Below, piece by piece: positions 1-32,000 of a stretch of 32,000 nucleotides of DNA. The notes below the pieces were generated by a model. It saw only the letters and a program-made list of their open reading frames with translations, was not told where the DNA came from and did not search any database. The position numbers and the translations under genes were made by a program. Each line of letters starts with the position of its first letter. The stretch's first letter is position 1. Where the stretch lies: positions 720,001 to 752,000 of the forward strand of contig NZ_CP054059.1 of assembly GCF_021057185.1 (NCBI RefSeq). The letters are read 5' to 3'. Source of the stretch: Candidatus Absconditicoccus praedator (GTDB lineage Bacteria > Patescibacteriota > Gracilibacteria > Absconditabacterales > Absconditicoccaceae).

Positions 1-129
1 ATATAGTATCTTTGTGATTTTGAATAAGTAATTACTGATTAAAAAAAATAATAATTGCTATATTTTGCGGAAATATAATGTTTACATTGTTGATATGAAA
101 TTTAGCCATATTCTGACTTATGGAATAAT

Positions 130-1077
130 TTATAATATATCTTTTATGATATATCTTTTTTCATATGAGTTATTATAATAATTTCTAATCATAATATCTA
201 TCATTATTCAGAAAATAAAAATAATTATTCACACCTGGACCAGAAAAATTCACAGAAAAAGCCATCAACTCCTATTCAATGACACATCCATTATGATTTT
301 TTGATAAAAAGCAACAAAGAAAAAAATGACTCATACTATAAAGTTTACAATTCATACAGTTCAAAAAAAATGCAGAGGTCTAGACTCATATTTTCAAATA
401 AACCATATATAGAAAAGATCAATAAATCATTTAATAGATTTTTTCCAGTTGTACTTACTAACTCAATTTTCCCTTACTCTATGATTTACACAAATTTCTC
501 AAACTTTGAAGCCATTTATCTTGGAAATAGCAACTATATATCTATGAATTTCAGCCCGCAAATTTAAGTTGTCAGTAACCTTTTTTCTATAAATTCTAAG
601 GGTGCAACCACTATCTTCTACACCATCTTTTATCAATAATTTTCTTAAAAACTTTGCAACAAAGGTTATAATTCTTACAGACAAGGGGTCTTTTCTTTGT
701 TTTCTATTTCATGCAACCAAATCCAAAGAATCTTTTTCTAGCTTATCATAAAGTCTTTTTATATCTTTGTGATCATTTTGTAAGTCTCAATCCATAGTCA
801 CCACTATGTCTCAATCAATATTTTTAAATCATGCATCCATAGCAATACTTTGTCAGTAATTCCTATTTAATCTTATTAATTTAATTTTATTGTTTTTTTG
901 TTTTATTTCAACTAACTCATTCCAGGTATTGTCTACACTTCAATCATCTACCATAACCAACTCATGCTCCCAATCAGAAAAATCTTTATCCAAAACTTTC
1001 TGAAGTTCTTCAAAAAGTGAGTTTATATTTCCAGACTCATTAAAAAAAGTTATTACAATAGAAATTTTTTTATTCAT
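130..1077 (-). CDS. GT2-family polyprenyl-phosphate glycosyltransferase (GtrB/ArnC/DPM1-like), 315 aa
   Basis: With TGA=Gly there is one frame from ATG 1077 to TAA 130-132. It carries GT-A motifs (ISIVITFFNE, VMVDDGSVDNT, DGDLQND), a central DSGCTLRIYRK and two C-terminal TM helices. Track ORF 499-684 is an in-frame fragment of it. Confidence 0.8.
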
Positions 1078-1112
1078 CAATCTCAAAAATAAATAAATTT
1101 ATTAATCAAAAA

Positions 1113-2489
1113 TTATCAAACACTTCCCTCCATTTCCATATCTATTAGTTTATTCAATTCTCAAGCATATTCCAATGGAAGCTTTTTTACTATAGGACTT
1201 ACAAATCAATTTACAACCATACCTGCTGCCTTATCTTCGGGAACTCATCTAGAAGTTAGATAAAAAAGTACTGTTTCATCTATTTTTCCAGAACTAGCTT
1301 CATGAGCAACAGTACTATCAGCATTTGATGCTTCTATTACAGGTATAGTATCTGATCAGGATTCTCAATCAACCAGTATTGTATCACATTCAGTTTGGTT
1401 TACTGCATTTTCTGCAGAAGGTAAGATTTTTACAATTCATCTATAATTAGCCTGTCCTCAATCTTTGCATACAGATTTACTTGTAATTTGAGAAGATGTA
1501 TTTTTTCATATATGCAAAACTTTTGAGCCTGTATCATGAGTTTGTCATTGACTTGCAAAAACTGCAGAAAGGTGTTCTGCTTTTGAGTTATCACCTTTTA
1601 GAATACTCATAGGGTAAAGCATAGTTTTTCAACTTCAAAGATTTCATCAAACCCATTCCATGAAAGAATTTTCTCATACTGTAGCTCTTTTGGTATTCAA
1701 GTTGTATGTATCAATAGACCAATTTTCTACAGATGAATATCTCATAGTAGAATTATTTCAAACATATATTTCTACACATCAAGCATGTAAAGCTCTTGAA
1801 TTAAACTTTGGTGCCGAACATCATTCTATATAATTACACTGAGCATTATCTTCCACGATAATTAAAGTATGCTCAAACTGTCATCATCACATTGTATTCA
1901 TTCTAAAATAAGCCTGTAAAGGCTCATCAAGCTTTACTCACTCTGGTACATAAATAAAAGTTCATCAACTCCAAACTGCTCAATGCAAAGCTGCAAATTT
2001 ATGATCAGTATTTGGTATTAAATTCATAAAATACTTTTTAACCAGCTCTTCATGATGATGTAATGCTTCATTCATATCTTCAAAAATTATTCATTTCTTT
2101 TCCCATTTTTCTTTCATCTTATGATACACCATACTACTATCATACTGACCTCAAGCTCCAGCTAAATACTGTCTTTCCGCCTCTGGTATTCAAAGTCTTT
2201 CAAATTTTTCTTTTATTTCTGGAGATACATCCTCCCAGTCTGTAGCATATTTTTCTAAAGCTTCAGGTTTTGCAAAAAACATTATTTCATCGAAATTTAG
2301 ATCGGATATATCCGGACCAAAATTTGGCATATGAATTTGCTGAAATTTTTTCAAGCTATCCAGTCTATGATTAAGCATCCATTCTGGTTCATTGTTTTCC
2401 AGAGAAATTCTTTTAACCACGTTTTCATCAAGTCATTTAAGCATCACCGCATACTTTATGTCCTCTGGTATATCTATATAATTTTGCAT
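1113..2489 (-). CDS. sufB: Fe-S cluster assembly protein SufB, 458 aa
   Basis: The N-terminus reads MQNYIDIPEDIKYAVMLKGLDENVVKRISLENNEPEWM...ERLGIPEAER and the C-terminus LPLEYAGELNKLIDMEMEGSVG. Track ORF 2190-2420 is an in-frame fragment that stops at a TGA sitting on a conserved Gly. Confidence 0.9.
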
Positions 2490-2508
2490 TTTTTATATAT
2501 AATAAAAA

Positions 2509-3228
2509 TTAAAATCAATCTTTTTTGACAGAATCAATTAAACTTTTATCTCACTTTTTTGATACTGTTCCATCTTTCATTATAATAACATTTTCTATAT
2601 CTATATATTCAAATATATCAAAATAATGTGAAACTATGATAAATGAGTTTTCTTTACTATCAATTGATCTAACCATATCTCAAAGCTGCCTCAAAGAATT
2701 TATATCAAGTCAACTATCTACTTCATCTAACATAATATATCTTGGCTCCAAAAGTTTTAATTGCAACATTTCTACTTTTCTTTTCTCTCAACCAGAAAAT
2801 CAAACATTAATATCTCTAAATAACATATCTTTATCTATTCAAAGTTCTTCTGATAATGGTAAAAGCATTTTCTTAAATTTCATAAAAGATAATTGATCTT
2901 TTTTTTCAAACCTACTATTATACATTAATTTTAAGAACTCAAATAATTTAACTCAAGGGATTTCTGGAATATTTTGAAATGCAAGAAAAATTCATTTTTG
3001 AGACCTTTCTTCTGGAGACATATCCAGTAAACTTTCTCAATCTACACTTATTTCTCAGTTCGTTATTTCAAAATGAGGATGTCACATTACACAAAAAGCT
3101 AAACTAGATTTTCAACTTCAATTTTTACCAAGCACAGCATAATTTTTTCATTTTTCAAAATCTATTGAAACATTTTTTAGTATATTATTTCATTCAACTT
3201 GAGCATTCAAATTTTTGATTTTAAGCAT
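2509..3228 (-). CDS. sufC: Fe-S cluster assembly ATPase SufC, 239 aa
   Basis: It has MLKIKNLNAQVEGNNILKNVS, Walker A GKNGSGKSSL, the ABC signature FSGGEKRK, Walker B IMLDEVDSGLD and an H-loop VSHY. It lies directly upstream of sufB. Confidence 0.9.
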
Positions 3229-3251: not shown

Positions 3252-3683
3252 TTACAATTTTGAGGCCTCAGATCTTGCTATCTTATCTACCAATTCATTG
3301 AGTGTATTATCACTATGTCACTTTACCCAATTAAACTTTATTTGTTTAAAATCATAAATTAATAAATCTAATTCTTCCCAAAGATCTCTATTTTTTACCT
3401 CTTTTTTGTTAGATAGCTTCCAACCATTATTTTTCCAAACCTTTAAATACTGTTTAACTCAATCATGAACATACTTACTATCCGTATAAATTTCAAGATC
3501 AATTTTTTTATTTTTTATTGCTTTTAATCACTCAATAACAGCTTTAAGCTCCATTCTATTATTGGTGGTATTTCTCTCAGCTCATTTTATAGTTTTACTA
3601 TTATCTTTGTAAAATAAAATTGCTGCATACCCACCATTTCCAGGGTTTCACAAACAACTTCAATCTGTATAAATTTTTATCAT
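3252..3683 (-). CDS. rnhA: Ribonuclease HI, 143 aa
   Basis: It reads [23 protein letters not shown]...TTNNRMELKAVIEGL...IYTDSKYV...WKNNGWK...WVKGHSDNTLNELVDKIA, which contains the DEDD catalytic residues typical of RNase H1. Confidence 0.88.
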
Positions 3684-3765: not shown

Positions 3766-4632
3766 ATGCTTGAATTTTTTTTACTAATTCCTATTTGTTT
3801 TTTCATATTAAACCTATGGATATGGTTTTTTGAAAGTATTTTTAAAACAGACAATAATAAGTTAATTTTTTTTCTGATACTATTTTTATGAAGCATTAGT
3901 AGTTTTAGTATTGTTCTATATCCTCAAATTTTGGGAATTCTTGAGTTAAATCAATTTAATTTTACTAAAAGAGAAAATATTGATTCATTGAACATATATT
4001 TGTACTTTTGGTTGTACCTTGTAGTTATTATAACAACTATAAAATTAATTATATGAAAATGAAAACTAAGTATGTTTTTTTTAGTAAACACAACAATTTT
4101 TAGTATATTATATTTTTTATCGTCATTTCTTTGACTAAGTTTAAACTTGGAAAAAGTATTTTTATATTATATTTTTGTAGCTTTTTGAGAAGAACTAATG
4201 AAGTTCCTGTTATCAACAATAATATTTGAAAAAATGAAATTGATTAAAACAGACATTATAGCATTTAGTATTCTTAGCGGTATTTGATTCGCATTTTTTG
4301 AGAATATAGTTTATTTAATATCAAGTATTAAGTGAGAAGATTTTTTAGTAGCAATAACGGGATGAATAAGCTTATTAATAGCAAGATGATTAATATGATT
4401 TCTTATGCACATAATATTTACCTGAAGCATATGAACAATACAAAGCTTTTACAATAACAAAAAAAATATGTTAATATTTTTAAGTTTATGAGTATTCACA
4501 TGAGTATCTTTACATTATACATATGACATCCTCTTAAGTAAATGATTTTGATTTGTAATAATAATTTTTTTGATTTTATGATATTTTTACTCTACATTTT
4601 TATTTTATAAGTCAGATAGATTATATATATAA
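3766..4632 (+). CDS. Polytopic membrane protein, PrsW-family intramembrane protease-like, 288 aa
   Basis: Under table 25 it is a plus-strand frame with about 8 TM segments. The motifs GEELMKF, FAFFENIVY, RGLIGFLMHIIFTG and LHYTYD resemble the PrsW EExxK / FxENxxY / HxxxD pattern. Confidence 0.6.
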
Positions 4633-5006: not shown

Positions 5007-6524
<1,518 letters not shown>

Positions 6525-6527
6525 AAA

Positions 6528-6547
6528 CTGCTTTGCCTCTTTTAATT
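6528..6547 (-). repeat. 5' strand of the 16S processing stem
   Basis: It is the inverted repeat partner of 4954-4973 and lies inside the 66-nt 5S-16S spacer. Confidence 0.6.
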
Positions 6548-6555
6548 ACCACTAA

Positions 6556-6590: not shown

Positions 6591-6709
6591 TGGTGGCATC
6601 AATTTACTTTCCCAGCCTCAGTGAGACCAGTATCATCAACCAACAAGATCTTAACTTCTGTGTTCGAAATGGGAACAGGTGTTTCCTCTTGCTGCATTGA
6701 TACCACCAG
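6591..6709 (-). rRNA. rrf: 5S ribosomal RNA (about 119 nt)
   Basis: The minus strand reads ctggtggtatcaatgcagcaagaggaaacacctgttcccatttcgaacacagaagttaag...gatgccaccaa. It has the conserved CCCAUxxCGAACxCAGAAGUUAAG block and a terminal helix (tggtggtatc / gatgccacca). Confidence 0.9.
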
Positions 6710-6790: not shown

Positions 6791-9745
<2,955 letters not shown>

Positions 9746-9929: not shown

Positions 9930-9976
9930 AATATAAAGATATAGTTTTATTTTTCAAGAGATTTTTAGACTTTTTT
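9930..9976 (-). promoter_or_regulatory. Distal copy of the rRNA promoter module, overlapping the murF stop codon
   Basis: This is exact 26-nt repeat copy 2 (9951-9976), with -35 TTGAAA (9957-9952), a 16-nt spacer and -10 TATATT (9935-9930). Confidence 0.45.
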
Positions 9977-11287
9977 CCAAAAAAATTCTTGTCTTGGCAG
10001 TTTTTGCCCATCCTCTTGGTTTTTTAATATTTTTTTTAATGCTTCTTCAAGAAAAATGCCGGTTTGACTTCACTTAAATAAAACCAAAAATTCTTCACTA
10101 TTTTTTTTCAAAAAGTTATTTAAATAATCTCATAAATCATAGGAATTTGCAAATAAAAATACATTTTGCATATCAAATCAAATCTTACTCAATTCATCAT
10201 AGGTAAAGCTTTTAGTATTTTCTCATAATAAGAATACATAATCTGCAAATCACAATATATAAGAAGCCATCAATCTGTGCTCCTGTTCTGAAAAATCTCC
10301 CAATTCTCTCATATCTCCAAAAACAAAAATTACAGAATGATTGGAATAAAATTTATCTTTTATATTAGCAGTATTGTTAATAACTTTTTTCGTACTTTCT
10401 GGTGAAGCATTATATGTAGAATCTATCAAAACAGATCAATTTATACCCTCAAATATTGAGAACCTACCTGGCTGTGAATAAACACTCAAACTTAAATCTC
10501 ACATTCATTCAACAACAGAATTATTATATCAAAAATTCCTATAGACTATATCTAATATTGCATATCACAATGTTATATATCATGCATTTTCTTTTCACAA
10601 AATATTAGTTGAAATATTTATATCCAAATTATTAATTTTTCATTTAAATTTTGAATTTATTTTACCATCTTCATAAACATAATCAAATTTTTCAAATCAA
10701 ATTTGAGCATTATCTTTACCTGTAGTTGTAAAATATATAATATCACAACCTACATTTAAGCTGTTTTTAGTGTATGAGTCATCATAATTCAAAAAAGAAA
10801 CATTTTTAGTGTTTTTTACAAGCTTAATTTTTTCTTCTGCAGTAACATCAGGACTTGAAAAATTTAAACAATGAACTTTATCTATTCAAGTAAATATTGA
10901 AATATCTGGCTTAACAACATCCAACAAAAAATCCATTTCACCTACCTCATCTATTCCATACTCTAAGAATAGCACATCATAACTTGGTTTTGAAAAGATA
11001 AAACTTCTTAAAACCCTTAATAAAATTTTAAGGAATCAAATTTTTGTAGGAACATAATCTGATATTTCAAAAATAGATAAACTTAATCAAAAACTTCAAT
11101 TATAGTTTTTTGGAGAAGTATAAATATTTATATCATTATCTGACAATATTTTTGAAATTATCATTCTACTTGTAGTTTTTCATATACTTCAAGTTACTCA
11201 TATCACAAAAACATCTTTTTTCTTTAAATGTATTTTTGCAAGTTTTCAAATAATATTAAAAAAACTTTTTTTTATCTTCTCTTTCAT
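9965..11287 (-). CDS. murF: Mur ligase family protein, UDP-MurNAc-tripeptide--D-Ala-D-Ala ligase (MurF)-like, 440 aa
   Basis: The P-loop is VIGVTGSIGKTTSR, with three Gly encoded by TGA. Further motifs are EYGIDEVGEM, LIDSTYNASPES and VFGDMRELG. The frame runs from ATG 11287 to TAA 9965-9967. Confidence 0.78.
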
Positions 11288-11314: not shown

Positions 11315-12190
11315 TTAAGTTAACTGTCTAATAACTTGATAAACTATTAGTAAAAACAAAAATATTAATATTACAACTAAGAATATAGCTTTTATTATAT
11401 TTTTTGCTTTGTTCCAAGCTTCTTCATCTCACCTGGATGTTATCAGCAATATTCAAGCATAAAAGATGGTAAGCAACAACAATCATCACAAAACATATCA
11501 TATAATTTGAGCAAAATCAATTAATAAACTAGCTGCTTCACTAACAAACTCATCTTGTTGTGCAATATAATAAACAAAATCTATCACCTTAATAAATATC
11601 AAAGCAATAATTACATTTAAAAATCATTTTTTTGCATTTGAAATTTTATCCTCACTATCGTATGCTTGAATAATTCTGTATCAGTAATAAAATATCATTA
11701 CTACTGCTGCAAAGAATGCTCAAGCTTTTAAAAATGCTAACACCTGAAACATCAAAGAGTCTTGAAATTCTGTAACCAAATCATCAGTTCACTGAACTGT
11801 TCATAAACTTAGAGCAGTTCAAAATATCCAAACTGAACCAAAAAACAAAAGTCATCAATAAAAAATATACAAAATATTCATTTTTGCTTTCTTAAGCTCT
11901 GATTCGTCATTTGCTTTCAATAAAAATTGAGCTCATGCCCACACTAAAAAAAATATAAATATTCACACTCATATAACTCTTAACACATTCCAAAGCTGTC
12001 ATCATCATTCATATGGTGAAAATAAGTTTCATATATTTTGCATCAAACTATTTTCTGCATCAACATTTAATTGATATGTTGTGTTTTCATATCAGTCTTC
12101 TGCTACTCCTTGAAAAGAAGGTGCTGCTAGAACAAATGATGATATCAAAAAAACTATCAAGGTAACAAACATAAATTTCAGTATTTTCAT
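11315..12190 (-). CDS. Secreted/membrane protein with three tandem VirB2/TrbC-like helical-hairpin modules, 291 aa
   Basis: A signal peptide (MKILKFMFVTLIVFLISSFVLAAP) is followed by three repeats of TM, short acidic loop, AK motif and TM: VWAGAQFLLKANDESELKKAKMNIL, IFYYGYRIIQAYDSEDKISNAKKGFL and IFYAGILLITSRGDEEAWNKAKNII. Confidence 0.6.
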
Positions 12191-12217: not shown

Positions 12218-12682
12218 TTAGGTAATATTAGCAAGAAGAGACATAACTAGTTGTATAATAACATAGAAACCAGTCATTATTAGAACTCAAACTCAAAGAT
12301 ACATAAGCCTTGTTTTTACCTTTTCCAAAACACTTTCATTCATTGAAGTTGTAACAAGCAATAATCAGTTGTATATAATAAGTATAACTGCTATACTAAG
12401 ACCAATAAATACAGCCCAATTTATATATGTTCAAATCTCCATCCTTACTCAGTCCAATGTTCATTCAACAGATCATCAGGGCTGTCTTTGAACATGATCA
12501 AGCTGGGTATCCTGAACACCCCTTCATTCTCTTACTTGATCTAAAACATCATTTGGAGAAGCATCTCTACTTCATCGTTTAACTGGTCACTGATCTCAAT
12601 CTCATCATTCCGCATACGAAAAAGATAACAAAGAAAAAGCTAACACAAAACAAAACAATATTAATTTATTCAACAAAAACAT
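12218..12682 (-). CDS. VirB2/TrbC-like pilin-type small membrane protein, 154 aa
   Basis: It has a signal peptide (MFLLNKLILFCFVLAFSLLSFSYA), a Gly/Asp-rich linker and one C-terminal TM-loop-TM hairpin (IIYNGLLLVTTSMNESVLEKVKTRLMYLGVGVLIM) matching the repeats of the neighbouring gene. Confidence 0.6.
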
Positions 12683-12814: not shown

Positions 12815-14728
<1,914 letters not shown>

Positions 14729-14799: not shown

Positions 14800-14829
14800 T
14801 AAAAATTTCAAGAGATTTTTAAATTTTTT
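14784..14829 (-). promoter_or_regulatory. dnaK promoter (same module as the rRNA promoters)
   Basis: The minus strand reads AAAAAATTTAAAAATCTC-TTGAAA(14811-14806)-N16-TATATT(14789-14784). The upstream A-tract overlaps the stop codon of the preceding gene. Confidence 0.5.
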
Positions 14830-17518: not shown

Positions 17519-18586
17519 TTATTTTTTCTCTTTTTTAATAAACTCATAAGGAAGACCTTTTATCCAGAAAAGATAGTAATTCACTCAAAAGAAAACCAAA
17601 AACATAAATAAAAATATTACTACTTTTCAAAGTCTATCGGCTCAAAGAAGTATTATTATAGTCATAAAAAACAAAGACCATCCCCATACAAAAACTCTAA
17701 CTTCATTCCTACTCCATCCCAATCTCATAAGTCTGTGATGAAGATGAGTATAATCTCATTTCAAGGGGTTTTTTTTCATAACAAGTATTCTATTGAGGAA
17801 AACCCAAATAGCATCAAAAAAAGCCAATGATATAGCAACTAAAATTGTTCAAATTTTTGCACCTCAAAGTAAAGCCAAATATGCCAAGGCAAATCACAAA
17901 AACATAACTCCAACATCTCTGAGCAATCAAAAAGGCTTAAACTCAACAAATGTATAAAGTAAAGAAAAAATCAAAAAAATAAAAGATATATTTGCTACCA
18001 TTTCAAGCATCTGTTTGGTTTCTTGTGTTATATCTTGATAATGAGGAAAAACAACCAAATAAATAAGTAAAATTATAGTAAGAAAACCTATAGATGATAC
18101 TCAACTTGCCAAAGAATTTACTCCATCAAACCAGTTAATTGCATTCATAAATCACACAAACCAGATTATAGTAAGTATAGCTGCTACAACAAAAGGAAAC
18201 TCTATTTGTCATAATATCGGTAAATTAATACTCTCTATCCCAACTCATGCAAAATAAAATGCTATAAAACCCAATAACAATTGTATAACAACCCTAATCA
18301 TAGGAGAAATTCACTTAATTTCGTCTATCACTCAAAAAATCAGTATAATAAATCAAAGCAAGAAAAAAACTATTATTTCTATATTCTGTAAATAATCAGG
18401 GAACACCAAAAGGATAGAAAACAAAACTCACATATACAAAAAAATTCACTGCAAAGTAGGCACAGGTTTTCTAGGAGGGATAATATCAGGTCATGGTTTG
18501 TCCAAAATATTAAATTTCATAAACAAAAAGACTCATCCAATGACAACTAATAAAGCTATTATTATAATATAAACAAAATCTATCAT
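17519..18586 (-). CDS. Glycosyltransferase family 4 polyprenyl-phosphate HexNAc-1-phosphate transferase (WecA/TagO/MraY family), 355 aa
   Basis: It has about 10 TM segments and the motifs MNAINWFDGVNSLASG and GDYTHLHHRLMRLGWS, which look more WecA-like than the MraY HHHFE motif. Confidence 0.78.
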
Positions 18587-18785: not shown

Positions 18786-18876
18786 AATTCTTTATTTAAG
18801 TTTTAAACTAATAAATATATAATCTTTTTGAAAGCATATTCAATAAATATTTTAATTTTTTCTCCATAACAAAAAA

Positions 18877-18948
18877 TGGGTCAGGAGGGAATCGAACCCT
18901 CGACCACCGGCTTAAAAGGCCGTTGCTCTACCCCTGAGCTACTGACCC
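18877..18948 (-). tRNA. tRNA-Lys (anticodon UUU), 72 nt, no encoded CCA
   Basis: The minus strand reads gggtcagtagctcaggggtagagcaacggccttttaagccggtggtcgagggttcgattccctcctgaccca. It folds as a cloverleaf with a 7-bp acceptor stem, D arm gctc/gagc, anticodon loop CU-UUU-AA and T arm gaggg-ttcgatt-ccctc. Confidence 0.9.
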
Positions 18949-19021
18949 AACATCAAGAGCTATAAAAAGCTCAAGAAGCTGACTTTATTGTATATATTTT
19001 TAAACAAAAATCAATTAATTT

Positions 19022-19216
19022 TTAGATTTGTCCTAACTTTGAAAGTTTTTTATAACAACTTGAACATATTTTTACTCTAACCTTAAAACCATCTCATAAG
19101 TCTATGTTTTTGGTGAAAAGGTTGGCTTTGAATTTTCTTTTAGTTGCTCTCATTGAATGGGATCTGTTATTTCAAGCAACAGTTCATTTAGAACAAACTT
19201 CACAAGTTCTTGCCAT
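19022..19216 (-). CDS. rpmB: 50S ribosomal protein L28, 64 aa
   Basis: It reads MARTCEVCSKGTVAGNNRSHSMRATKRKFKANLFTKNIDLGDGFKVRVKICSSCYKKLSKLGQI, which has the typical L28 core (GN.vSHS....kR.F.pNL). Confidence 0.85.
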
Positions 19217-19243: not shown

Positions 19244-19855
19244 CTACTTATTTTCAGCCTCTCAGTTTTCTGTATCCTCTTGTATAGATTCTTCCTCCTC
19301 AGGTTCTTCTTTTATTTCTACAACAGTAATTATTGGCTGCTCTAGATCATCCACTATTTCTACTCATTTAGGTACTTGTAAATCTTTTACAAATACGATA
19401 TCATTTGTTGTCTTAATTTCTGAAAGATCTAATGTAAAGTCATGAGGTAAATCTTTTGGCAATGCCTCTACAACAACATGATCTTTCACCATTTCTATCT
19501 TTCATAAAGATTGTTTTTCAACTGGAGCTTCTCACTGAGTATATACAGGAACCTCAGCCTCTGTTTTTTCATCTGCTTTAACCGCATGGAAATCTATATG
19601 AAGCAACCTGTTTTTTACTGGATCTACATCGACTTCATGAATCAAAACCATTTGATTTATACCGTCTCATTTCAAAGTCACAGGAGTTGACTCTCATGCT
19701 TTTTCATAGACTTTCAAAAACTCCATTTTATCAAAAAAAACAGAAATAGGAGACTCCAGATGCTTTCAATAAACAACACCTGGTATCAATCAGTCTGCCC
19801 TATACTTTTTTAACGACTTTCCAAACTCCCATCTTTTTTTTACTGAAAGATTCAT
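19244..19855 (-). CDS. rplY: 50S ribosomal protein L25 / general stress protein Ctc, 203 aa
   Basis: It reads MNLSVKKRWEFGKSLKKYRADGLIPGVVYGKHLESPISVFFD...LLHIDFHAV, followed by an acidic C-terminal tail. Confidence 0.83.
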
Positions 19856-19881: not shown

Positions 19882-20262
19882 CTACTTTTTTTCAAGCTGA
19901 TATTGCTTTGAAAAATTTTTTGAAGACTTCATTCTTGCTGATTTTCACACTTTATGCCTTATATAATACAACTTTGCTCTTCTTATTCTATACTCATCTA
20001 AAACAGTTATTTTATCAAAATAAGGAAATGACAAAGGATAAATTTTTTCAACAACTATTCATGAAGTTTTTCACCTCACTGTAAAAGTTCAATCTACTGA
20101 GTTTTTTTTCTTAACTCTTAGGACTAGTCATTTAAATCTCCAAATTCTTTTACTAGATCATTCTCATATCACTTCTGATATTTCAAGATACTGTCATGGT
20201 TTCACATCATACTTTTTATATCACTTTTGATGAAAAAGTTTTTTAAGCCTTTCAAAGTTCAT
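19882..20262 (-). CDS. rplS: 50S ribosomal protein L19, 126 aa
   Basis: It carries the hallmark L19 motifs ...EGSSKRIWRFKGLVLRVKKKNSVDGTFTVRGKTSGIVVEKIYPLSFPYFDKITVLDEYRIRRAKLYYIR. Confidence 0.88.
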
Positions 20263-20285: not shown

Positions 20286-20426
20286 CTAGCTTTGTCTTTT
20301 CATAACTTTTGCTTTCCATTTTCTTTGTTGCTCTACTTGCTTTCTTATATCCATCACAACAACTCTTTCAACTCTTGCAAGTGCTTTATTAAGTTTTTTC
20401 TTTCAATTAGTTCTAAGTCTTGCCAT
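20286..20426 (-). CDS. Hypothetical small basic protein, 46 aa (weak bS21-like pattern)
   Basis: It reads MARLRTNGKKKLNKALARVERVVVMDIRKQVEQQRKWKAKVMKRQS. It is embedded in the ribosomal protein cluster. The L-x-K-A-L-x-R-x-x-R pattern faintly recalls S21, but this is not established. Confidence 0.4.
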
Positions 20427-20435: not shown

Positions 20436-20693
20436 TTATTTAATTAAATGATTAAGTCATTTCTTTTCTAAAACAGACGAAACAGAATCTTTTTTTATTC
20501 AATACTTTTTTAGCTTAGTTTCTGCCTTTTCGAAAGCATTTTTAATCCACCTTGTTTCTCCATATTTTTCTTGTTTTTTTAAAAGCTCTATATATCACAA
20601 AATAGCTTTTTCATTTTTTTCTCAAGACATAGCTCTTTTTCTATTAATATTTCTCAACCAGTGATTATGTCTTGCTCTTTTTTGATTACCCAT
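20436..20693 (-). CDS. Hypothetical small basic helical protein, 85 aa
   Basis: It reads MGNQKRARHNHWLRNINRKRAMSGEKNEKAILGYIELLKKQEKYGETRWIKNAFEKAETKLKKYGIKKDSVSSVLEKKGLNHLIK. It lies between rpsG and the 46-aa ORF, and I recognise no family. Confidence 0.45.
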
Positions 20694-20715: not shown

Positions 20716-21186
20716 TTATTTAACATATTTTGCCAAGTATGCATAAGCCTTATTTGCTTCTGCCATCTTGTGAGTATCTTCTTTTCTCTTAACTGAAGAT
20801 CATTGATTTGAATAAGCTGCCAACAACTCTTCTGCTAAAGCCTTATACATTGGAACTCATTTTTTTTGTCTTGAATACATAAGTATCCACCTAACAGCAT
20901 AAAAAAACTTTTTATCTGATTTTACCTCTAAAGGAACCTGATATACAGCTCATCAAATCCTTTTTGATTTCACCATCACCGAAGGAGAAGAATTTTCTAT
21001 TGCAATCTCCCAAACTGCAAAAGGATTTATATGTCAATTTTTCTTAATTTCCTCCATACAATCATAAAAAATCTTTCTTGCAATAGACTTTTTTCAATCT
21101 TTCATAAGATGATTTACAAACTTTTCTATCTTACTATTTGTACTAGGAGTTGAAAAAAGCTCGTTTTTTTTAAACTTTTTTGCCAT
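20716..21186 (-). CDS. rpsG: 30S ribosomal protein S7, 156 aa
   Basis: It reads MAKKFKKNELFSTPSTNSKIEKFVNHLMKDGKKSIARKIFYD...SPSVMVKSKRIGGAVYQVPLEV...AVRWIL...KEDTHKMAEANKAYA. Confidence 0.92.
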
Positions 21187-21217: not shown

Positions 21218-21631
21218 TTATTTTTTAGGTCTTTTTGTTCAGTAAACAGATCTAGACGTCTTCCTATTCTCTACTCAAGCCAAATCATAAGCTCATCTAA
21301 CAACATGATACTTAACTCACGGAAGATCCTTTACTCTTCACCCTCTCACCAAAACAACACTATGCTCCTGCAAAGAATGTTTTTCTCCTGGTATATAAGC
21401 TATAACCTCATGACCATTAGAAAGCCTCACTTTTGCAATTTTTCTCTGTGCTGAATTTGGCTTCTTTGGAGATGCTACTGTTACCTTCAAACACACACCT
21501 CTTTTAAAAGGAGAAGCATAATAGGTTTTTTTATTCCTAACAGTATTAAGACCATACTGCAATGCTGGAGACTTAGACAGACTTTTTTTGTCTTTTCTTC
21601 CTTTTTTTACTAGCTGATTTATTGTAGGCAT
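21218..21631 (-). CDS. rpsL: 30S ribosomal protein S12, 137 aa
   Basis: Track ORF 21338-21631 ([12 protein letters not shown]...HSVVLVRG) continues through TGA as [40 protein letters not shown] and ends at TAA 21218-21220. Confidence 0.95.
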
Positions 21632-21766: not shown

Positions 21767-23401
21767 TTACTCTCTAGTATACACATACAAGTTGTACAAA
21801 AGGTATAAGAAAACAGAAATAAGCACAAACATAACAAAATTTAAAAATGGTCATACTTGCACTCTTTCTACATCTCATATTTGACTTCTTTCTCAATCTT
21901 CGCAATCAGCTTCAACTGCATACCAATTATAAGATACTTCTTCTGCATCAGGATCAAAAGGATATTTAAACTTTGTATCCTCTGTTTCAGCAACTTTTTC
22001 CATATCAGAGATAGAAGTAGTATCTCAATCTTCTGACATGTATACATTATATTTTTCTGCTCATTCTACCTCATCCCATACTAAATAATGATCATCTCAG
22101 TCTTTTTCAATCGACAACTCTATCCCACGAACTCTACAAGATGCTGCTCACATCATTCATCATTCCACAAATGAAACATCAGAATATACTCAAGTTTTAT
22201 CTTGCTGATCGTCCAACTCAAAAACTTTCACATAATAATCTTCTTCAAAATCAAATCATTCCAAAACAACTTCATTATCTTCTACTATCACTTCTTCTCT
22301 TTGGTCTTTGTCATTTAAATTATCCTGACTATCTGCATAAACTAATTTAAACTCTACATATTTTCAATCATAATTCCAGCTAAAATACATTTCATCTTCT
22401 TCTGGATATTGCTCATACCTAAAAGAAGAAATAGATCACTCTTGAGAAACAGACACACTATCAACCTCTTCAAAATTTGCTGACTCTCACTGATATATAG
22501 TTTCTACATGAACAGGAAAGGTTCACACTTCATCGATTGTAGCATCTACCTCAAAAAATCAATCTTCCACATTATTCATAGAATACTCACCAACTCAATC
22601 AATAGTTAGTTGCACATCTTCTATGTCTTCTCAAGTCTCTACTTGTACAGTCACAGTTTCACCCTCTTTAATTCATTCTTCTGGCGTGATTATAATATCT
22701 TTAAAATCCTCAAGCTCTTGCTCCTCATAATAAAAAGTAATAGTATCAGACTCAGCCATTGTGTCACCACCATCCATTAAAGATACATATACTTCATTTT
22801 CTCAATCAGTTAAACCATCTATATTAGTATCAAATCCTCAATCTGAATCAGTAGTTCATGACTCAACTAGATTTCAATTCAGATATATATCAAATTGAGT
22901 ATTAGGAGCATCTGTTTGTCATATAACTTCTAAAGAGTCATCATAATACTCATCACCTTCAGAAGGAGACAAAATATCTATATCCCATTCTTGATCATCT
23001 TCTTCAGAAAAAACTTCTACTTCTAATTTTCAATATACATCTTCATCAAACATATCTTCTACAACCAAGTCAAAATATCACTCATCTGTAATATCTGAAG
23101 TATCATGAAATTCAAGTCATCTATCAAAAACAACTTCTCACTGGTCTTCATCTGAGAATGTATAAATTCAGTCACTTGGAAAGCTTACATCATCCATTCA
23201 AGCATTTTCCACCATCATAAGAATATCTCCATTATAGTCTTGTACTACTTCTCATTGATCATCAACAGCTCTTACTGTCAAGTCTACCGACTCATTTACT
23301 CTTGGAGATTCTGGATCCAATTCTATTTCAAACTCCTCCACATAAGAATATGAAAAGCTTATACTAAATAAGAACACAATTAATAAGATTATTTTTTTCA
23401 T
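21767..23401 (-). CDS. Highly acidic cell-surface protein with signal peptide, beta-rich Ig-like repeats and C-terminal TM anchor, 544 aa
   Basis: The N-terminus is MKKIILLIVFLFSISFSYSY. The body is very rich in D/E with repeated beta-strand-like segments (VDLTVRAVDDQGEVV, GETVTVQVETGEDIEDVQLTIDG). The C-terminus is hydrophobic (PFLNFVMFVLISVFLYLLYNLYVY). The start and stop frames agree (1635 nt). Confidence 0.7.
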
Positions 23402-23426: not shown

Positions 23427-23900
23427 TTATTTAGCTGATATTGATAATCTTTCTGTTGATCAATCGGTAAAATTTACAACAACATCTGAAAGAGTCACTT
23501 CTCAATCATCTCAGTCAAAAGGAAATGAAAAGATATTTTCTTCTGAACCAATCTCTCAAATATTTGTAAATATTAGCTTTTCTCATGCTCACTCTATATT
23601 AGCAGACGAGTAATCAAAATCAGAATCTATATTTAAATCTCAAACTTCAAGACCTTCATCATAATACAAATCAATACTTACAGAAGCAACTCTATCAAAA
23701 GAAGAATTTGCGTCTACATAAACCTCTCATTCTTCTATATAATATACTATGTCTCAACCATATTCTACCTGAGTATCTTCATCCACCAATATATCAGCTG
23801 TAAGAAGATCTGCCCTGTCTACTGCAAAAACTACAACAAAAGCAAGAACAAAAGCTGTGCTCAAGGCAAACAAATTTTCCTTAATATTTATTGTTTTCAT
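23427..23900 (-). CDS. Secreted acidic protein, 157 aa
   Basis: The signal/anchor is MKTINIKENLFALSTAFVLAFVVVFAV, followed by an acidic beta-rich domain (DLYYDEGLEVGDLNIDSDFDY...). It lies immediately upstream of the 544-aa acidic protein. Confidence 0.6.
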
Positions 23901-23977: not shown

Positions 23978-25030
23978 TTAATTTAAATATTGACTTCTTA
24001 AATAATTGTGTTCTTGTAAAGTTTGGGAGGTATGAAGAGCTCAAGAATTATCATGCAAATAGTAACAATCATTTGTTTCTTCAAAATCCAAAACTGCATT
24101 TAATGTTGCAGAAGAAGGACTAGCTATAGGTGTTGGAGTTAATCAACGATTTTGTCTTGTATTATAAGGATTTGATGAATCGTTTAGATGACTTACTATC
24201 TGATCTACTGTGCAAGTTCTGTATGACTCACCTAAACCATAACAAAGAGAAATATCCGCATCCAATCTAAATATATTTTGGCAGTTTGAAGCAAGCCTAT
24301 TTAAAAAGATTCAGGCTATTTTATTTTTATTTGGATTATAATTTTCTTCTTTTTCTATGATAGACGCTAAAGTTATAATCTCATAAACTGACAATTCTAA
24401 ATTATATCAAAGATTATTTAATCTTTCTGAAAAGTATAGAAACTCATTTTTTCTATCTTCCCATATACCAAGCTCAAAATTATTTAACTGATTGATCACA
24501 ACCTGCCTTATGATATCTCAAGAAGAAATATCTATAGTATATGTATCCGGATACAAAAATCATTCAAAAGACTTAATTTTATCTTCTCACAAATTTTGAA
24601 GAAATGTATAATATTCTTCATAGCTTTTTATTACACTTTGATCTGTTACATAATCTACAAAACTTCAAGATTCTATAAATCACAACACAGACAAATAATA
24701 GTCTATATCATACATTCACCGTCACTCTAAAATAGTTATATTTACTTCTTTTGTTTGTGGTCACTCTTCAAATTTTTTTATTACTTCTGATTTTGAATAC
24801 ACTCCATCAAAAGAGTAGAATCCATCTTTAGGTTGTGGTTGTTCTTTTCAGGACAATAAAAAATAAATATAAAAAGATAAACTATCTTTTTTTCCTAAAT
24901 CATTTAAAAAGTTAGAAAAATAATAATTATCTGTTATTACAACATCTCTTTCAAGAGAAACATCTCTTGCAAAAAGATAATAAACACTAACAAAGAATAA
25001 AATTACTACTGCTAAAAGTATTTTTTTCAT
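23978..25030 (-). CDS. mltG: Endolytic murein transglycosylase MltG (YceG-like), 350 aa
   Basis: It has an N-terminal TM (track ORF 24848-25030) and YceG motifs: YPDTYTI, ITLASIIEKE, AGIFLNRL, LDADISLCYG and NPYNTRQNRGLTPTPIASPSSATLNAVL. Confidence 0.85.
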
Positions 25031-25039: not shown

Positions 25040-26923
25040 TTATTTTTTTGAATCCTCTTCTCATTGCTCCTCAAGAGTAAGTCATACAAGACTATCCTCT
25101 TTTCAAGTGTCATCCTTAACATTTCAGGAGCTATCTCTATTTATATACACAAACATTGGAATTATCATAGGGATTCTTCATAGAATTTTTACAACATAAT
25201 CTCATAACTCTTCTTTAATCACCTTAAGAACCTCCTTTGTATTTGAATTTTTCTTAGAAAGCTCATTATATCTTTTCTTAACAAATTCAATAATATTTGT
25301 ATGCACTTTTTTAACTTCAGAAGAATATACAAATCATCTTGATTCAATTTGTATATTTCATACCAGCTCTCTAGTTTTAGAATCTATTTTAAATATTAAA
25401 TTTACTACTCAATTCTCAGACATAATTTTTCTTGCCTTCATCACATACTCTCCAGAAAGATGACCAATTCATTTACCATCTACCATGACTGTATCAAGCT
25501 TTAATTTTTCATCTGACAACACCAACTCGTCATCGTACATCTCAATTATCGCTCAATTCTCAACCGGCATCAAAATATTTTCTTCAGGTATTCACATATC
25601 CATTGCAAGATTTTTGTGAGCATATCTCATTCTTGCATCTGTATAAAATGGCAGAAAATATTCTGGTTTAATTAAATTTATCATAAGCTTATGATCTTCT
25701 TGATAACCATGTCAACTTGCATGTATATCAAGATCATCATTTGTTATAAGATTTATTTTTCTAACTACAAGATCGTTAAGCATCTTGGATACATCTGCCT
25801 CATTTCAAGGTATAGTAGAAGCTGACACCAAAACAGTATCTTGCTCTCTTAAACGAAAATTGGCATGTTCTCATCTTGATATTCTTGCAAGACCACTGAA
25901 TTCTTCTCACTGAGCTCATGTGGACAATATTACCACTCTTTCTGGAGGCATATTTTCTACATCACTACTTAATTTACGAACACATCACCTTGGCACATCA
26001 AGATATCAAAGCTTTTGACATATCTCTACATTATTAAGCATCGATCTTCATTCCAAAAATACCACCTTATCATACTTTATAGCATTTTCTATTATTTGAA
26101 TTATTCTTCAAACATTGGAAGCAAAAGTAGCTATTATAAGTCTAGATGGAACAGTTTTTATAATTTCTTCTAGATTTTGTCATATTACTTTTTCTGACAA
26201 AGCCCATCATTTTCTCTCTGCACCCAGACTATCTCACACATAAAGCCTAACTCACTCCAATCATATCCTTGCTATTTTTCAAAGATCTGCTGGCTTATCT
26301 ATCGCTGGAGTATAATCTATTTTGAAGTCCGCAGAATTAAATATTAGTCACTTTGGAGTATGTATAGCTAAAGCTAATGTTTCTGGTATATTATGGTTGA
26401 CTCCTACAAATTCAATACTAAAACATCATAGTTTTATTATGTCACTTTCTGGATTAATTATTTGATGCTTTATTTTTGGAACATCTTTTGGATCAGCAAA
26501 TGTTTTCTTTATGATTCATAAAGTTAAAGGTGTTGTATAAACTTTAGGAAAATCAAGTTCAGGTAAAATATGCTTCAGCGCTCATATATGATCTAAATGT
26601 CAGTGAGTCAAAACAATTCATTTTATTTTATGTTTATTTTTCTTCAAGTATGAAATATCTGGAATAAGGTAATCAGCTCACATAGTTTCAGTTGCAGAAA
26701 ACTCCATACCTGCATCTACTATTATTATATCATCCTTATATTCTATAAACACGCACTGTCACACCTGTTCCAATCACAACAAATTTCATATTCTTACAGG
26801 TTCTTCTTTTCTATTACTTTTTGCTAACTTATTTGTTTTTGGTCTAACTGTATTCTTTGTATAATTTTTGCTTGTATTTTTAGAATTAAAATCTATTTTT
26901 ATATTAGAATTTCATTGCATCAT
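25040..26923 (-). CDS. rnj: Ribonuclease J, 627 aa
   Basis: It has the metallo-beta-lactamase motif IVLTHGHLDHIGAL (Gly encoded by TGA at 26600-26602), a beta-CASP region, and HASGHGYQEDHKLMINLIKPEYFLPFY. Confidence 0.9.
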
Positions 26924-26949: not shown

Positions 26950-27495
26950 ATGGTTAATAGTTTATTAAAAACTATAAAAAGTGATTGTTTTAATCAAAAT
27001 ATACCGCTCATAAGTAAGCCTTCAATGCATATCATCAAAAACCTACTATTAACAAACAAGCCCCAAAACTGCTTGGAGGTTTGATCAGCTATATGATACA
27101 GCATAATTTTTCAAGCATCTATTATTAACAACCGAGGAGGTAAAATTATATGATTTGAGATATCTACCAACTCTTACAGACAAGCTTTAAATAATGTTTT
27201 TAGATCAAACCTAAATAATATATTACTTATTAACTATAATTTTACCAAATTCCCTATAAACCAAATTATAAACGATATAGATTTTATTTTTATAGATGCT
27301 AGAAAAGCAGAATATTTGGATTGTCTACTGAAAATTATGCCGTACCTTAAGGAATGAAGCTTAGTAGTTTTTGATGACGTAATGCAGTTTAAAGATAAGA
27401 TACATAATTTATATTCATTTATTAAAAAAAATCAACTAATTTATGAAATAATTTCTTCCGAAAAAAGTGACTGAATTCTTATAATATATTTTTAA
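26950..27495 (+). CDS. Class I SAM-dependent O-methyltransferase (family 3, YrrM/TrmR-like), 181 aa
   Basis: It is on the plus strand and reads MVNSLLKTIK...CLEVGSAIGYSII (SAM motif I), IGFEIS, DFIFIDARKAEY and LKEGSLVVFDDV. Confidence 0.72.
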
Positions 27496-27505: not shown

Positions 27506-27892
27506 TTATTTTAAAGCATAACACTCTGAACTCAGTTCCATCTTTTCCAACTCAGACGGCAAATCTATCTTATCTTCTTCATAAATAAACTTTTCTGCAG
27601 AACAAAAGTCATCGTCTTCAAATACTTTCACAGAATCCACTATAGCAAAACTTTCTCAAGAAGTTTTTTTTATGAAATAACATAGTCAATTTTTTCAACT
27701 AATACATTTTATATAATTTCATTGAATATCATACTCACCTGGGTAATTTATTTTTTCAGAAGATTGTTTTCAATACAACACATCTTCTCATATATTATAA
27801 TTTAAATTGTACAGTCAATTTTGCTCTCAATCGGCTGAAAAATAAAACTCATCAGCTATAATATATCAATTATCTTTTTTTTCTATTTTCAT
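27506..27892 (-). CDS. Hypothetical protein, 128 aa
   Basis: Under table 25 the frame reads MKIEKKDNGYIIADEFYFSADGEQNGLYNLNYNIGEDVLYGK...SECYALK, with about 9 TGA read as Gly. I recognise no family. Confidence 0.45.
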
Positions 27893-27916: not shown

Positions 27917-28318
27917 TTATCAAAAAAAGTTTGGGTTTAGCATATATAAGATCACTCATGAGGCTCACAATAGAAATATTCCAACTAAAACCCTTATAAT
28001 TAAATCCTTTCAGGTAGAAAAGGCTGACTGGTCTGCTCAAGACATAGTAATCATAACTCATCAGGCTACCAGCATAAAAAAACCAACAACGATAACAACT
28101 GTTACCAATATTTTAGTCATTCATCATATCAAAAAAGGAAATATTTCATCATCTTCAACATCACTCCCCTCTCATCAAATACAATTTCAAATAAAAGGAA
28201 CATGAGTGTTCAAACTAATTCAGTCACAATCATCTCACTCATCATCTCCATTTTCTGCATAAGCAAAATTGAAAGAAAACAATAGAATTGATATAAGAAG
28301 AAAAGTTATTTTTTTCAT
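27917..28318 (-). CDS. VirB2/TrbC-like pilin-type small membrane protein, 133 aa
   Basis: It has a signal peptide MKKITFLLISILLFSFNFAYA, an acidic Cys-containing linker (CDGISLNTHVPFIGNCI) and a TM-loop-TM hairpin FFMLVAGGVMITTMSGADQSAFSTGKDLIIRVLVGIFLL. Confidence 0.58.
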
Positions 28319-28329: not shown

Positions 28330-28761
28330 TTATTTAAATTCATCTATTATTTTATTGAGAAGAGCTCAGTCTATTTGTGTTTTATCATAATGCTCAAATA
28401 TATTTTTTATTATTTGTCATTTTTGCTTTGCAACATCTTGAATTCCAAGCTTTTCTATAGTATTTTGAACAATATTTTTCAAATTCTCTTCTCAAATCAT
28501 CTCGGGCAAAAAACTTTCTAACAAATCCAGTTTTGCACTTTCCTGATTTATATCCTCTTCATTTTTTAAAAAGCCTATTTCCTCTTTTTTTTGCTTTATC
28601 TCTTTTTGGATAATTTTTACATACTCTTCATCTTTGAGTTCTCTTCAAAGCTCTTTTTCTTTATAAGCTATTTGAGACAATAAATAATTATACAACTCTT
28701 TTTTAGACACATCTTTTTCTTTCATAGCTTTTTTATATCATTCTTTTATACTACTTTTCAT
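28330..28761 (-). CDS. GatB/YqeY domain-containing protein, 143 aa
   Basis: It reads MKSSIKEGYKKAMKEKDVSKKELYNYLLSQIAYKEKELGRELKDEEYVKIIQKEIKQKKEE...FLPEMIGEENLKNIV...KQKGQIIKNI, a typical YqeY pattern. Confidence 0.78.
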
Positions 28762-28825: not shown

Positions 28826-28860
28826 TAATAAAAAGGAACCAAACTCTATGTTTGGCTTCC
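28826..28860 (-). terminator. Terminator hairpin overlapping the yidC stop codon
   Basis: ggaaccaaac (28835-28844) pairs with gtttggcttcc (28850-28860), giving 10 bp with one bulge. On the minus strand it is followed by TTTTT. Confidence 0.55.
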
Positions 28861-29637
28861 TCCTTTTAATGACATTAGTTTTGCTTTTATTAGCTGTCTA
28901 TATTGAATACTAAATTGAATAACTCAGAACAATGTTGTGGTGGCAATATACAATCAAATTCAAGCAGGCATTGTGTATACAAAAAATGCCATCATAGTTG
29001 ATAATGCAATATTCATGTATCACATCATTTTTGTCATATCAGGCATATTTTCTGCTCAAGGCATGTTGGTTGGCATTGAAGGTCTATTAAGCATAGTAAG
29101 TTTCATTTGCAAAAACAACAACAAAGGAGCGATTATGGTTAGAGCTATTGATCAGGATGATAATAGGTCTATCCCAAAAAATACAGTATTTACTTGAGAA
29201 ATATCAACTCCTCTTACATTAATAAATTCTAAAAAACTATACAAATAAGTCATATCAAGCTTTCACTCTGTTTCCGAAAAGTTTCTAATAACAAAAAACA
29301 ACCCAATAAACACAGGAATTTGTACCAACAACATCAAACAACCTTTCAAAGGACCTGATCAATGCTTTTTAAAAACACTCATTGTTTCTTCAGCCATTTT
29401 TTGTTGATCATTTTTATATTTCTCTTGGATTTCTTTTAATTTTGGCTGAAGGTCGGTCATTTCTTTTTGCATTTTATTTCATGCAAGGGTTGGTTTAAGC
29501 AACAATAATCTTACAAAAAGAGTTAGTATGATTATTGCAACTCACAAATTTAGATTGAATATTACAAGAAACAAAAGCAAAAGATTGAATATTGGACGAT
29601 ATATTATTTCTACTATTACAAGAAAAAAAGGATTCAT
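28846..29637 (-). CDS. yidC: Membrane protein insertase YidC (short, Oxa1-like form), 263 aa
   Basis: It reads MNPFFLVIVEIIYRPIFNLL...AIIILTLFVRLLLLKPTLAGNKMQKEMTDLQPKLKEIQEKYKND...GCLMLLVQIPVFIGLF...MPAGIGLYIATTTLFGVIQ. Confidence 0.85.
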
Positions 29638-29677: not shown

Positions 29678-31090
<1,413 letters not shown>

Positions 31091-31129
31091 AGGTTTAAAA
31101 TTAACTATTTAAATTTTGTCCAAGCTACT

Positions 31130-31726
31130 TTAAGTACTAGTTTTATTGTTTTTCACATAATCTAGAATAACCTCTCACAAAGTCTCTACAAGAACATCAA
31201 ACTTGTCTGGCTCTACATAATTTTCCTGAGAATTTATACTATCTCTTATCTGCACAATATAATTCGTAACAGAACTTGGATTAGCAACCTCATAAAAAGT
31301 ATAAATCTCATCTTGTCTTTTAATTTTGAGGTTTCACTTACCTGAAACAATATCAAGTATTCAATTCTGCTCATCGTATACACTTTGGGCAGCATCTCGT
31401 TGAATATGTTCTGTATTTTGCCTCAAAAAACCCTCTCGCTTAAACAAGACAAGTCACTTATTAGTAACAACTATACAATCCAAATATATATCCAAAATAC
31501 TCACCATAAAAACAACATACAACAACAATCAAAGAACACCCAACACATAATCAAAATACCTCCATTCAAAATAAGCTCACAACAACTCATACACTAAAAA
31601 AAGCAGAGCCAACAAAAACAAATGTTTTACTATAGACTTTGTGTACTTCCAACTATGATGACCTATTACTTTATATATTTTTCTATCTGAAAGATGCTTA
31701 TTCAGAATAGAATTTCTAAATCACAT
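31130..31726 (-). CDS. Membrane protein with bacterial PH (bPH_2/YdbT-like) domain, 198 aa
   Basis: Two TM helices (LFLLALLFLVYELLGAY, VLGVLGLLLYVVFMVSIL) are followed by LDCIVVTNKGLVLFKREGFL...ILDIVSGKGNLKIK, the pattern of membrane-flanked PH domains. Confidence 0.5.
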
Positions 31727-31735
31727 TTATTATAA

Positions 31736-31963
31736 TTAATTAGATTTATTAATTTGATCTATTTTTTTCTGTCTTTCTAAGAACTTCTCCATTCTTCACT
31801 TAACAACTTTTGTTTCTTGCTTACCTGTATAAGTTGGATGACACGCTGGACAAGACTCAACTTTTATTGGTCAATCAGTTGCAGCCGCAACTTCAAACTT
31901 ATTTCAACATATACAATCCACTTCTACAGACCCATTATATTTAGCATGAATTCATTTTTTCAT
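31736..31963 (-). CDS. rpmE: 50S ribosomal protein L31 (Zn-ribbon type), 75 aa
   Basis: It reads MKKGIHAKYNGSVEVDCICGNKFEVAAATDGPIKVESCPACHPTYTGKQETKVVKGRMEKF, which contains the hallmark CHPFYTGKQ-like motif. Confidence 0.88.
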
Positions 31964-32000
31964 TTTTAATTCCTTAACAAAATAAATTATTTTCAAAGCT

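Follow-up and report, generated by a model that had tools for sequence, protein, structure and literature searches.

The 32,000-nt stretch of the Candidatus Absconditicoccus praedator chromosome examined here (contig NZ_CP054059.1, positions 720,001 to 752,000; hereafter the window) raises the question of which genetic code its genes are written in, and whether that code is exactly the one used for its annotation. A first-pass annotation of the window had proposed NCBI translation table 25, in which UGA encodes glycine and the remaining codons keep their standard meaning. As far as sequence comparison can tell, it is confirmed that UGA is read as glycine, that UAA and UAG are the sole stops and that UGG is tryptophan. 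The window is very probably a stretch of the A. praedator chromosome in which these assignments are combined with CGA and CGG read as tryptophan, and the code of Ca. A. praedator is probably UGA = Gly, CGA = Trp and CGG = Trp, not table 25 as annotated.

The window has a GC content of 31.4%. Under the standard code (table 11) its open reading frames (ORFs) of 90 aa or more number 11; five fall within rRNA genes, one is antisense, and the longest has 215 aa. With TGA taken as a sense codon, 31 closely packed coding sequences (CDS) are obtained instead, comprising 27 that were modelled first, the gene for ribosomal protein L31 and three small ORFs added later. These end in TAA (26) or TAG (five), and never in TGA. 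The fragmentation of the genes by the standard code and the presence of 31 full-length, tightly packed CDS ending in TAA or TAG had both been stated in the first-pass annotation, and the same count was reached on re-modelling. The 31 CDS occupy 25,140 nt, or 92% of the window outside the RNA genes, and UAA and UAG are kept as stops in all of them and in 10 further CDS just outside the window. In the 27 genes modelled first, GGN alone makes up 1.76% of codons, whereas GGN and TGA together make up 6.85%, which is a normal glycine content; TGA then accounts for 412 of the 554 glycine codons (74%). TGA can also be the last sense codon, as in SufB, where it faces the C-terminal Gly and is followed by TAA, and in the membrane protein gene at 27917..28318.

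The codons that had been singled out earlier as examples were all found as described. The Walker A motif of AtpD, at 30617-30640 on the minus strand, reads GGT TGA GCA TGA GTG GGT AAA ACT, and TGA stands at 14699-14701 and 14711-14713 in DnaK, at 26600-26602 in RNase J and at 2190-2192 in SufB, the last being the codon at which the table-11 ORF 2190..2420 terminates. The MurF P-loop translates as VFVIxVTxSIxKTT (where x is TGA), with three TGA codons, and ribosomal protein S12 follows the same pattern with two TGA codons in VRGxRVKDLPxVKYH. Tryptophan is still written TGG, for example in the EPEWM motif of SufB.

The meaning of TGA was assessed by aligning the window proteins, with TGA masked, to their homologues in seven E. 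coli K-12 regions, where the standard code applies. Gly was the facing residue for 96 of the 147 TGA codons (65%), and Trp for none. In the controls, GGN faces Gly in 62.5% of cases and TGG faces Trp in 64%. Given a background of ~8% glycine, the binomial probability of 96/147 is ~1e-67, and chance is thus excluded. The assignment of UGA to glycine put forward in the first-pass annotation is upheld by this parity with the GGN control, as is the statement that TGA falls on invariant glycines, with 20 of the 23 TGA codons of AtpD and all five of those in RpsL (S12) facing Gly in E. coli. In an alignment of DnaK with 48 homologues of normal Trp content, the 34 TGA columns contain Gly in 88% of cells, compared with a 7% background, and 31 of them are Gly-dominated. 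Exchanges with ordinary glycine codons are also seen between close genomes: when paired codon by codon with six relatives, TGA of the window faces TGA in 336 cases, GGT in 52 and GGA in 29, and GGT and GGA of the window pair with TGA of the relatives 98 times.

The departure from table 25 concerns CGA and CGG (together CGR). These codons are rare, with six CGA and two CGG in the window against 166 AGA, that is, eight CGR among ~8,300 codons (CGA at 7 and CGG at 2.5 per 10,000), and AGA is the main Arg codon. They were compared codon for codon with the DNA of relatives, Vampirococcus lugosii included. The 24 resulting pairs include TGG in 11 cases, CGR in six and an Arg codon in none, whereas the 493 control pairs of AGA and AGG include 318 Arg codons and a single TGG (Fisher p for CGR versus the AGR control, 2e-15 and 5e-11). 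The adjoining 9 kb outside the window adds four CGR codons, each of which has TGG opposite it in a relative; one corresponds to a conserved Trp of RelA/SpoT. Taken together, TGG of one or more relatives stands opposite eight of the 12 CGR codons of A. praedator, and an Arg codon opposite none. The reverse case also occurs, in that TGG codons of the window at conserved Trp positions face CGA or CGG in relatives (FLV-W-AGA and FV-W-GWSLF). Conserved Trp contexts of the CGR/TGG sites include ILEGW in MltG and FVWGW in the MraY-like protein.

As CGR is exchanged with TGG but in no case with an Arg codon, table 25 probably falls short of the full code of this organism. Of the code proposed in the first-pass annotation, glycine for UGA, TAA and TAG as stops and Trp for UGG therefore stand, and what does not stand is the retention of CGA and CGG as Arg. 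A change of CGA and CGG from Arg to Trp in Absconditabacteria has previously been predicted by Codetta (Shulgina and Eddy 2021; PMC8629427).

How such a code would be read can be outlined from the literature on the phylum. UGA would be decoded by a tRNA with a UCA anticodon and glycine identity, and release factor 2 (RF2) would have been lost, so that UGA would no longer terminate translation. The presence of tRNA-Gly(UCA) and absence of RF2 as criteria, and the phylum-level code, are given in PMC8629427. The elements of glycine identity in such a tRNA(UCA) are G1:C72, C2:G71, G3:C70 and U73. Translation of UGA as glycine has been proved by proteomics in the sister clade Gracilibacteria (Hanke et al. 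2014, PMC4032931). Wobble misreading of UGG by tRNA-Gly(UCA) might have prompted Trp codons to shift into CGR, an idea that is purely speculative.

Several points weigh against the proposed code, some of which also favour the alternative that it is exactly NCBI table 25, with UGA = Gly as the sole change and CGA and CGG still arginine as in GenBank. The reading of CGA and CGG as Trp involves few codons, 12 in A. praedator of which eight have TGG in a relative, and its evidence is comparative, not proteomic. Three of the 12 CGR sites, all in the window, are uninformative, and a further one (556..558) faces Cys or Pro in PDB homologues. In the window together with the 9 kb beyond (~41 kb of genome in all), ARAGORN found no tRNA(UCA), tRNA(UCG) or tRNA(CCG), and no release-factor gene was found there either. 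Decoding of UGA or CGR that is ambiguous, or differs in rare cases, may also be compatible with what is seen in the DNA. Table 25 without further change draws on the small sample, eight CGA or CGG among ~8,300 codons, on the same four window sites, and on the Arg that the GenBank proteins have at these positions. It is nevertheless unlikely. Were CGR arginine, AGA to CGA would be a one-base synonymous step, yet pairs of CGR with AGA, AGG or CGY of relatives number 0 of 24, while pairs with TGG, which is two base changes away from CGA, number 11. Since the synonymous step between CGA and AGA is never seen and the two-base change is, mutational proximity is no explanation for the pattern. Several CGR sites, furthermore, are conserved Trp positions (in MltG, the MraY-like protein and columns containing only R and W), and the same reassignment is predicted for the phylum by Codetta.

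With CGR as Trp remaining the preferred reading, two further alternatives concern TGA itself. That it encodes tryptophan, as in the table 4 code of Mycoplasma and several insect endosymbionts, is highly improbable. TGA is clearly a sense codon here, and automatic gene callers have put W at every TGA of the same genes in public collections (P0002, P0121 and P0136). However, Trp faces 0 of 147 TGA codons in the E. coli homologues, whereas it faces 64% of TGG codons, so the earlier argument against table 4 holds, TGG remaining the Trp codon. Relatives swap TGA with GGT and GGA and not with TGG, and a DnaK translated with W would hold 5.3% Trp and 2% Gly. The probability is negligible that TGA really terminates translation here and that the window is a set of pseudogenes, sequencing errors, programmed readthrough or selenocysteine genes: although nearly every gene is broken under the standard code, 421 in-frame TGA codons contrast with no in-frame TAA or TAG over the same 25 kb, they occupy invariant glycines of essential proteins and face Gly rather than Cys or Sec, and the sequence is identical in an independent assembly; selenocysteine, pseudogenes and readthrough were rejected on the column counts.

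The code described here, with UGA as Gly and CGA and CGG as Trp, can be set beside those already known. Table 25 is the Candidate Division SR1 and Gracilibacteria code (Campbell et al. 2013; Rinke et al. 2013; both cited in PMC8629427). It shares with the window UGA = Gly, UAA and UAG as the only stops and UGG = Trp in an AT-rich genome (31% GC here), and differs in keeping CGA and CGG as Arg, whereas in the window these behave as Trp. The Absconditabacteria code of the Codetta study (PMC8629427) includes all three reassignments seen here, with a similar rarity of CGA and CGG. The Codetta predictions were made on Pfam consensus columns from six species, while a codon-for-codon comparison with relatives was made here; both are non-experimental. 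The Gracilibacteria (BD1-5) have the same UGA = Gly, for which 97 peptides unique to the Gly translation were reported, compared with three for Trp (PMC4032931), but they represent another lineage, the window being placed in Absconditabacteria by its rRNA order and protein matches. Genomes using table 4 are likewise small, AT-rich genomes in which a stop codon was captured as sense, with RF2 missing and tRNA(UCA) present according to the criteria in PMC8629427; there, UGA is Trp and not Gly as in the window. Vampirococcus lugosii (Moreira et al. 2021, PMC8080830) is a predatory relative with UGA = Gly. Its genome (L136) has genes in common with the window and likewise interchanges CGA with TGG, although it belongs to another genus and the shared membrane protein is ~45% identical.

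Assignment to this lineage follows from several observations. When translated by table 25, DnaK, MltG and the membrane protein of 198 aa are identical to proteins of Ca. A. praedator in GenBank (taxid 2735562, phylum Absconditibacteriota; UFX83190.1, UFX83203.1 and UFX83211.1, respectively). The match of DnaK is full-length, to a protein encoded on a contig of 1,129,696 bp. Two loci on one contig of an independent Logan assembly (SRR15691272), L008 and L230, reproduce the window at 100% identity, with one match spanning 12.5 kb of genes and the second 10.9 kb. The rRNA genes, all on the minus strand at 5007-9744, follow the order 23S-5S-16S; their short spacers (83 nt and 66 nt) contain no tRNA, and the 16S gene was located at 5007-6524, where it had been placed before. 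This order has been reported as unique to SR1 genomes (Camanocha and Dewhirst 2014, PMC4192840). Together with the exact protein matches, it indicates that the lineage is Absconditabacteria and not Gracilibacteria. The origin in Gracilibacteria or Absconditabacteria suggested by the first-pass annotation can therefore be sharpened to Absconditabacteria (SR1), Ca. Absconditicoccus praedator, a predator from that lineage which has been described and is grown in co-culture (Yakimov et al. 2022, as cited in PMC12428579). The junction between MurF and the 23S gene is present in the independent Logan contig (L008) as well. In two relatives (L009, 6069-11324, and L010, 14900-20148), the MurF-like gene is followed by genes for a 634-aa protein and an ACR_tran transporter, with no rRNA array, and hence the position of the array is not conserved.

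For the phylum, UGA = Gly is textbook knowledge, and the A. praedator genome is published with a GenBank annotation by table 25. The reading of CGA and CGG as Trp has computational support only so far. If it is true, the deposited proteome has Arg where the cell inserts Trp, at about one codon per thousand, and the correct-looking GenBank annotation probably still mistranslates CGA and CGG. Two entries, UFX83203.1 (23978-25030) and UFX83211.1 (31130-31726), have Arg at CGA or CGG codons where relatives have TGG, probably in place of Trp. As A. praedator is among the few cultured members of the phylum and is grown in co-culture, with Halorhodospira reportedly as its prey, a proteomic test of CGA and CGG is feasible, and this organism would be the first place for it.

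The choice of table also matters for annotation in general. Table 11 shatters the genes, and the fallback to table 4 gives full-length proteins with Trp in place of the TGA-encoded glycines. Versions of the genes of this window translated by table 4 were found in public collections (P0002, P0121 and P0136; Logan SRR15691272), with 34 G-to-W changes in DnaK. The DnaK entries of relatives (P0003-P0010, P0018 and P0037) often contain 2.5-7% Trp, from the same table-4 cause.

As regards tRNA genes, tRNA-Lys(UUU), which has no role in recoding, is the only one in the window, and the adjoining 9 kb has none. ARAGORN found nothing but tRNA-Lys in the corresponding loci of relatives. A generic tRNA pattern (acceptor end, T-loop and UCA loop) gave at least 120 matches in reference genomes, nearly all of those listed being due to chance and in unrelated high-GC genomes. 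A stricter pattern applied to metagenomes recovered cloverleaf tRNA(UCA) genes with glycine acceptor ends on low-GC contigs, which are not tied to A. praedator. In this group, tRNA(UCA) genes with glycine identity elements are carried by L184, L145, L211, L177, L214, L223, L192, L194, L172 and L179 (metagenome contigs of 25-40% GC), on which ORF coverage rises from 0-0.66 under table 11 to 0.55-1.0 with TGA as sense. These contigs are probably from Gracilibacteria or Absconditabacteria. Their ORFs open only when TGA is read as sense, which fits the model and says nothing on the A. praedator genome.

Cloverleaf tRNAs with a UCA anticodon and glycine-type acceptor ends were also seen in seemingly standard-coded high-GC genomes (Anaerolineaceae, Gemmatimonadales, Archangium and Akkermansia), at L014 16-90, L102 269-341, L063 1799-1871 and L034 4985-5055, and in L158, L153 and L183. 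They are tRNA-SeC according to ARAGORN, and may be either natural suppressors of UGA or copies of tRNA-Gly(UCC) that have mutated. Very large low-GC contigs (L140, L164, L165, L169-L171, L202 and other BNJ* contigs) contain a recurrent tRNA-Gly-like sequence with a 6-nt anticodon loop, CTTCAA, which resembles tRNA-Gly(UCC) lacking one C, perhaps through a homopolymer error of long-read assembly.

Table 1. Genes and CGA/CGG codons of the window, with the count of TGA codons in frame and with matches or facing codons for each (aa, amino acids or residue number; facing codons are those of relatives)
Feature	Coordinates	Strand	Evidence
Family 2 glycosyltransferase, 315 aa, 17 TGA, stop TAA	130..1077	-	PF00535 E=7e-28
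CGG, glycosyltransferase aa 174	556..558	-	Cys or Pro in PDB homologues
SufB, 458 aa, 29 TGA	1113..2489	-	PF01458; 13 TGA face Gly in E. coli SufB
SufC ATPase, 239 aa, 16 TGA	2509..3228	-	PF00005; 13/16 TGA face Gly in E. coli SufC
RNase HI, 143 aa, 6 TGA	3252..3683	-	PF00075; 4/6 TGA face Gly in E. coli RnhA
PrsW-family membrane protease, 288 aa, 17 TGA	3766..4632	+	PF13367
16S rRNA, last of 23S-5S-16S array	5007..6524	-	RF00177, 1438 bits
5S rRNA	6591..6707	-	RF00001
23S rRNA, first of array	6791..9744	-	RF02541
Mur ligase (MurF-like), 440 aa, 22 TGA, three in P-loop GVTGSIGKTT	9965..11287	-	PF08245, PF02875
T4SS-pilin-like membrane protein, 291 aa, 21 TGA	11315..12190	-	PF18895; Trp84 and Trp121 (TGG) face CGA/CGG in relatives
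Small membrane protein, 154 aa, 14 TGA	12218..12682	-	Orthologues in L009, L010, L134
CGA, small membrane protein aa 36	12575..12577	-	Faces CAG, TCT, CGA; variable region, uninformative
DnaK, 637 aa, 34 TGA	12815..14728	-	100% identical to UFX83190.1
SbcC/Rad50-like ATPase, 889 aa, 22 TGA	14828..17497	-	Weak PF13558 match; orthologue in L010
CGA, SbcC-like aa 617	15647..15649	-	TGG in L010; probably Trp
CGA, SbcC-like aa 197	16907..16909	-	Faces GCA in L010; uninformative
Family 4 glycosyltransferase (MraY/WecA-like), 355 aa, 19 TGA	17519..18586	-	PF00953; Trp301 (TGG) faces CGA in two relatives
Small ORF, 54 aa, 0 TGA, stop TAA	18611..18775	-	Called as gene in L008 too
tRNA-Lys(UUU)	18876..18949	-	ARAGORN, Rfam
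Ribosomal protein L28, 64 aa, 3 TGA	19022..19216	-	PF00830 on identical L008 gene
Ribosomal protein L25, 203 aa, 8 TGA, stop TAG	19244..19855	-	PF01386
Ribosomal protein L19, 126 aa, 9 TGA, stop TAG	19882..20262	-	PF01245
Small basic ORF, 46 aa, 1 TGA, stop TAG	20286..20426	-	Called in L008 too
Small basic ORF, 85 aa, 4 TGA	20436..20693	-	Called in L008 too
Ribosomal protein S7, 156 aa, 6 TGA	20716..21186	-	PF00177; 4/6 TGA face Gly in E. coli
Ribosomal protein S12, 137 aa, 5 TGA	21218..21631	-	5/5 TGA face Gly in E. coli RpsL
Very acidic (Asp/Glu-rich) protein, 544 aa, 31 TGA	21767..23401	-	No Pfam match; L137 orthologue
Hypothetical protein, 157 aa, 9 TGA	23427..23900	-	No Pfam match; orthologue in L137
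MltG (YceG), 350 aa, 13 TGA	23978..25030	-	PF02618; identical to UFX83203.1
CGG, MltG aa 104 (ILEG-x)	24719..24721	-	TGG in L132, L137; Tyr or Met in solved homologues; probably Trp
RNase J, 627 aa, 38 TGA, one in THGHLDH zinc motif	25040..26923	-	PF22505, PF17770
O-methyltransferase (YrrM/TrmR-like), 181 aa, 5 TGA	26950..27495	+	PF01596; PDB 8k1f E=2e-15
CGA, methyltransferase aa 62	27133..27135	+	CGA kept in L137; loop variable in PDB homologues; uninformative
Hypothetical protein, 128 aa, 9 TGA	27506..27892	-	Orthologue in L137
Small membrane protein, 133 aa, 14 TGA	27917..28318	-	Gene model
YqeY-like protein, 143 aa, 5 TGA	28330..28761	-	PF09424
YidC insertase, 263 aa, 10 TGA, stop TAG	28846..29637	-	PF02096
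ATP synthase beta subunit, 470 aa, 23 TGA; Walker A GGAGVGKT with two	29678..31090	-	20/23 TGA face Gly in E. coli AtpD
Membrane protein, 198 aa, 7 TGA	31130..31726	-	Identical to UFX83211.1; Vampirococcus lugosii homologue is a YokE-like PH domain protein in UniRef
CGA, 198-aa membrane protein aa 110	31397..31399	-	TGG in L136 (Vampirococcus lugosii) and L137; only R/W in column, 13 homologues; probably Trp
CGA, 198-aa membrane protein aa 97	31436..31438	-	TGG in L137, CGA in L136; only R/W in column, 13 homologues; probably Trp
Ribosomal protein L31, 75 aa, 4 TGA	31736..31963	-	PF01197 on identical L230 gene

Some features of the gene content stand apart from the question of the code. Three small ORFs (18611-18775, 20286-20426 and 20436-20693, encoding 54, 46 and 85 aa) lie among the ribosomal protein genes; two of the products are very basic, and none has a family match. 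The 544-aa acidic protein has a signal-like N-terminal segment and a hydrophobic C-terminal segment, and shows ~40% identity to its counterpart in a relative. Signal-like N termini are also present on three small membrane proteins (11315-12190, with PF18895; 12218-12682; and 27917-28318). In relatives, the first two of these genes stay beside that for DnaK, and a gene for a TraG-like ATPase is nearby in some.

The atpD gene is flanked by the gene for a PH-like membrane protein on one side and by yidC on the other, and no further ATP synthase gene adjoins it. In the relative L137 (2648-3529 and 10639-12036), atpG is found ~7 kb off, beside a SufBD gene. In this lineage, the ATP synthase operon appears to be dispersed.

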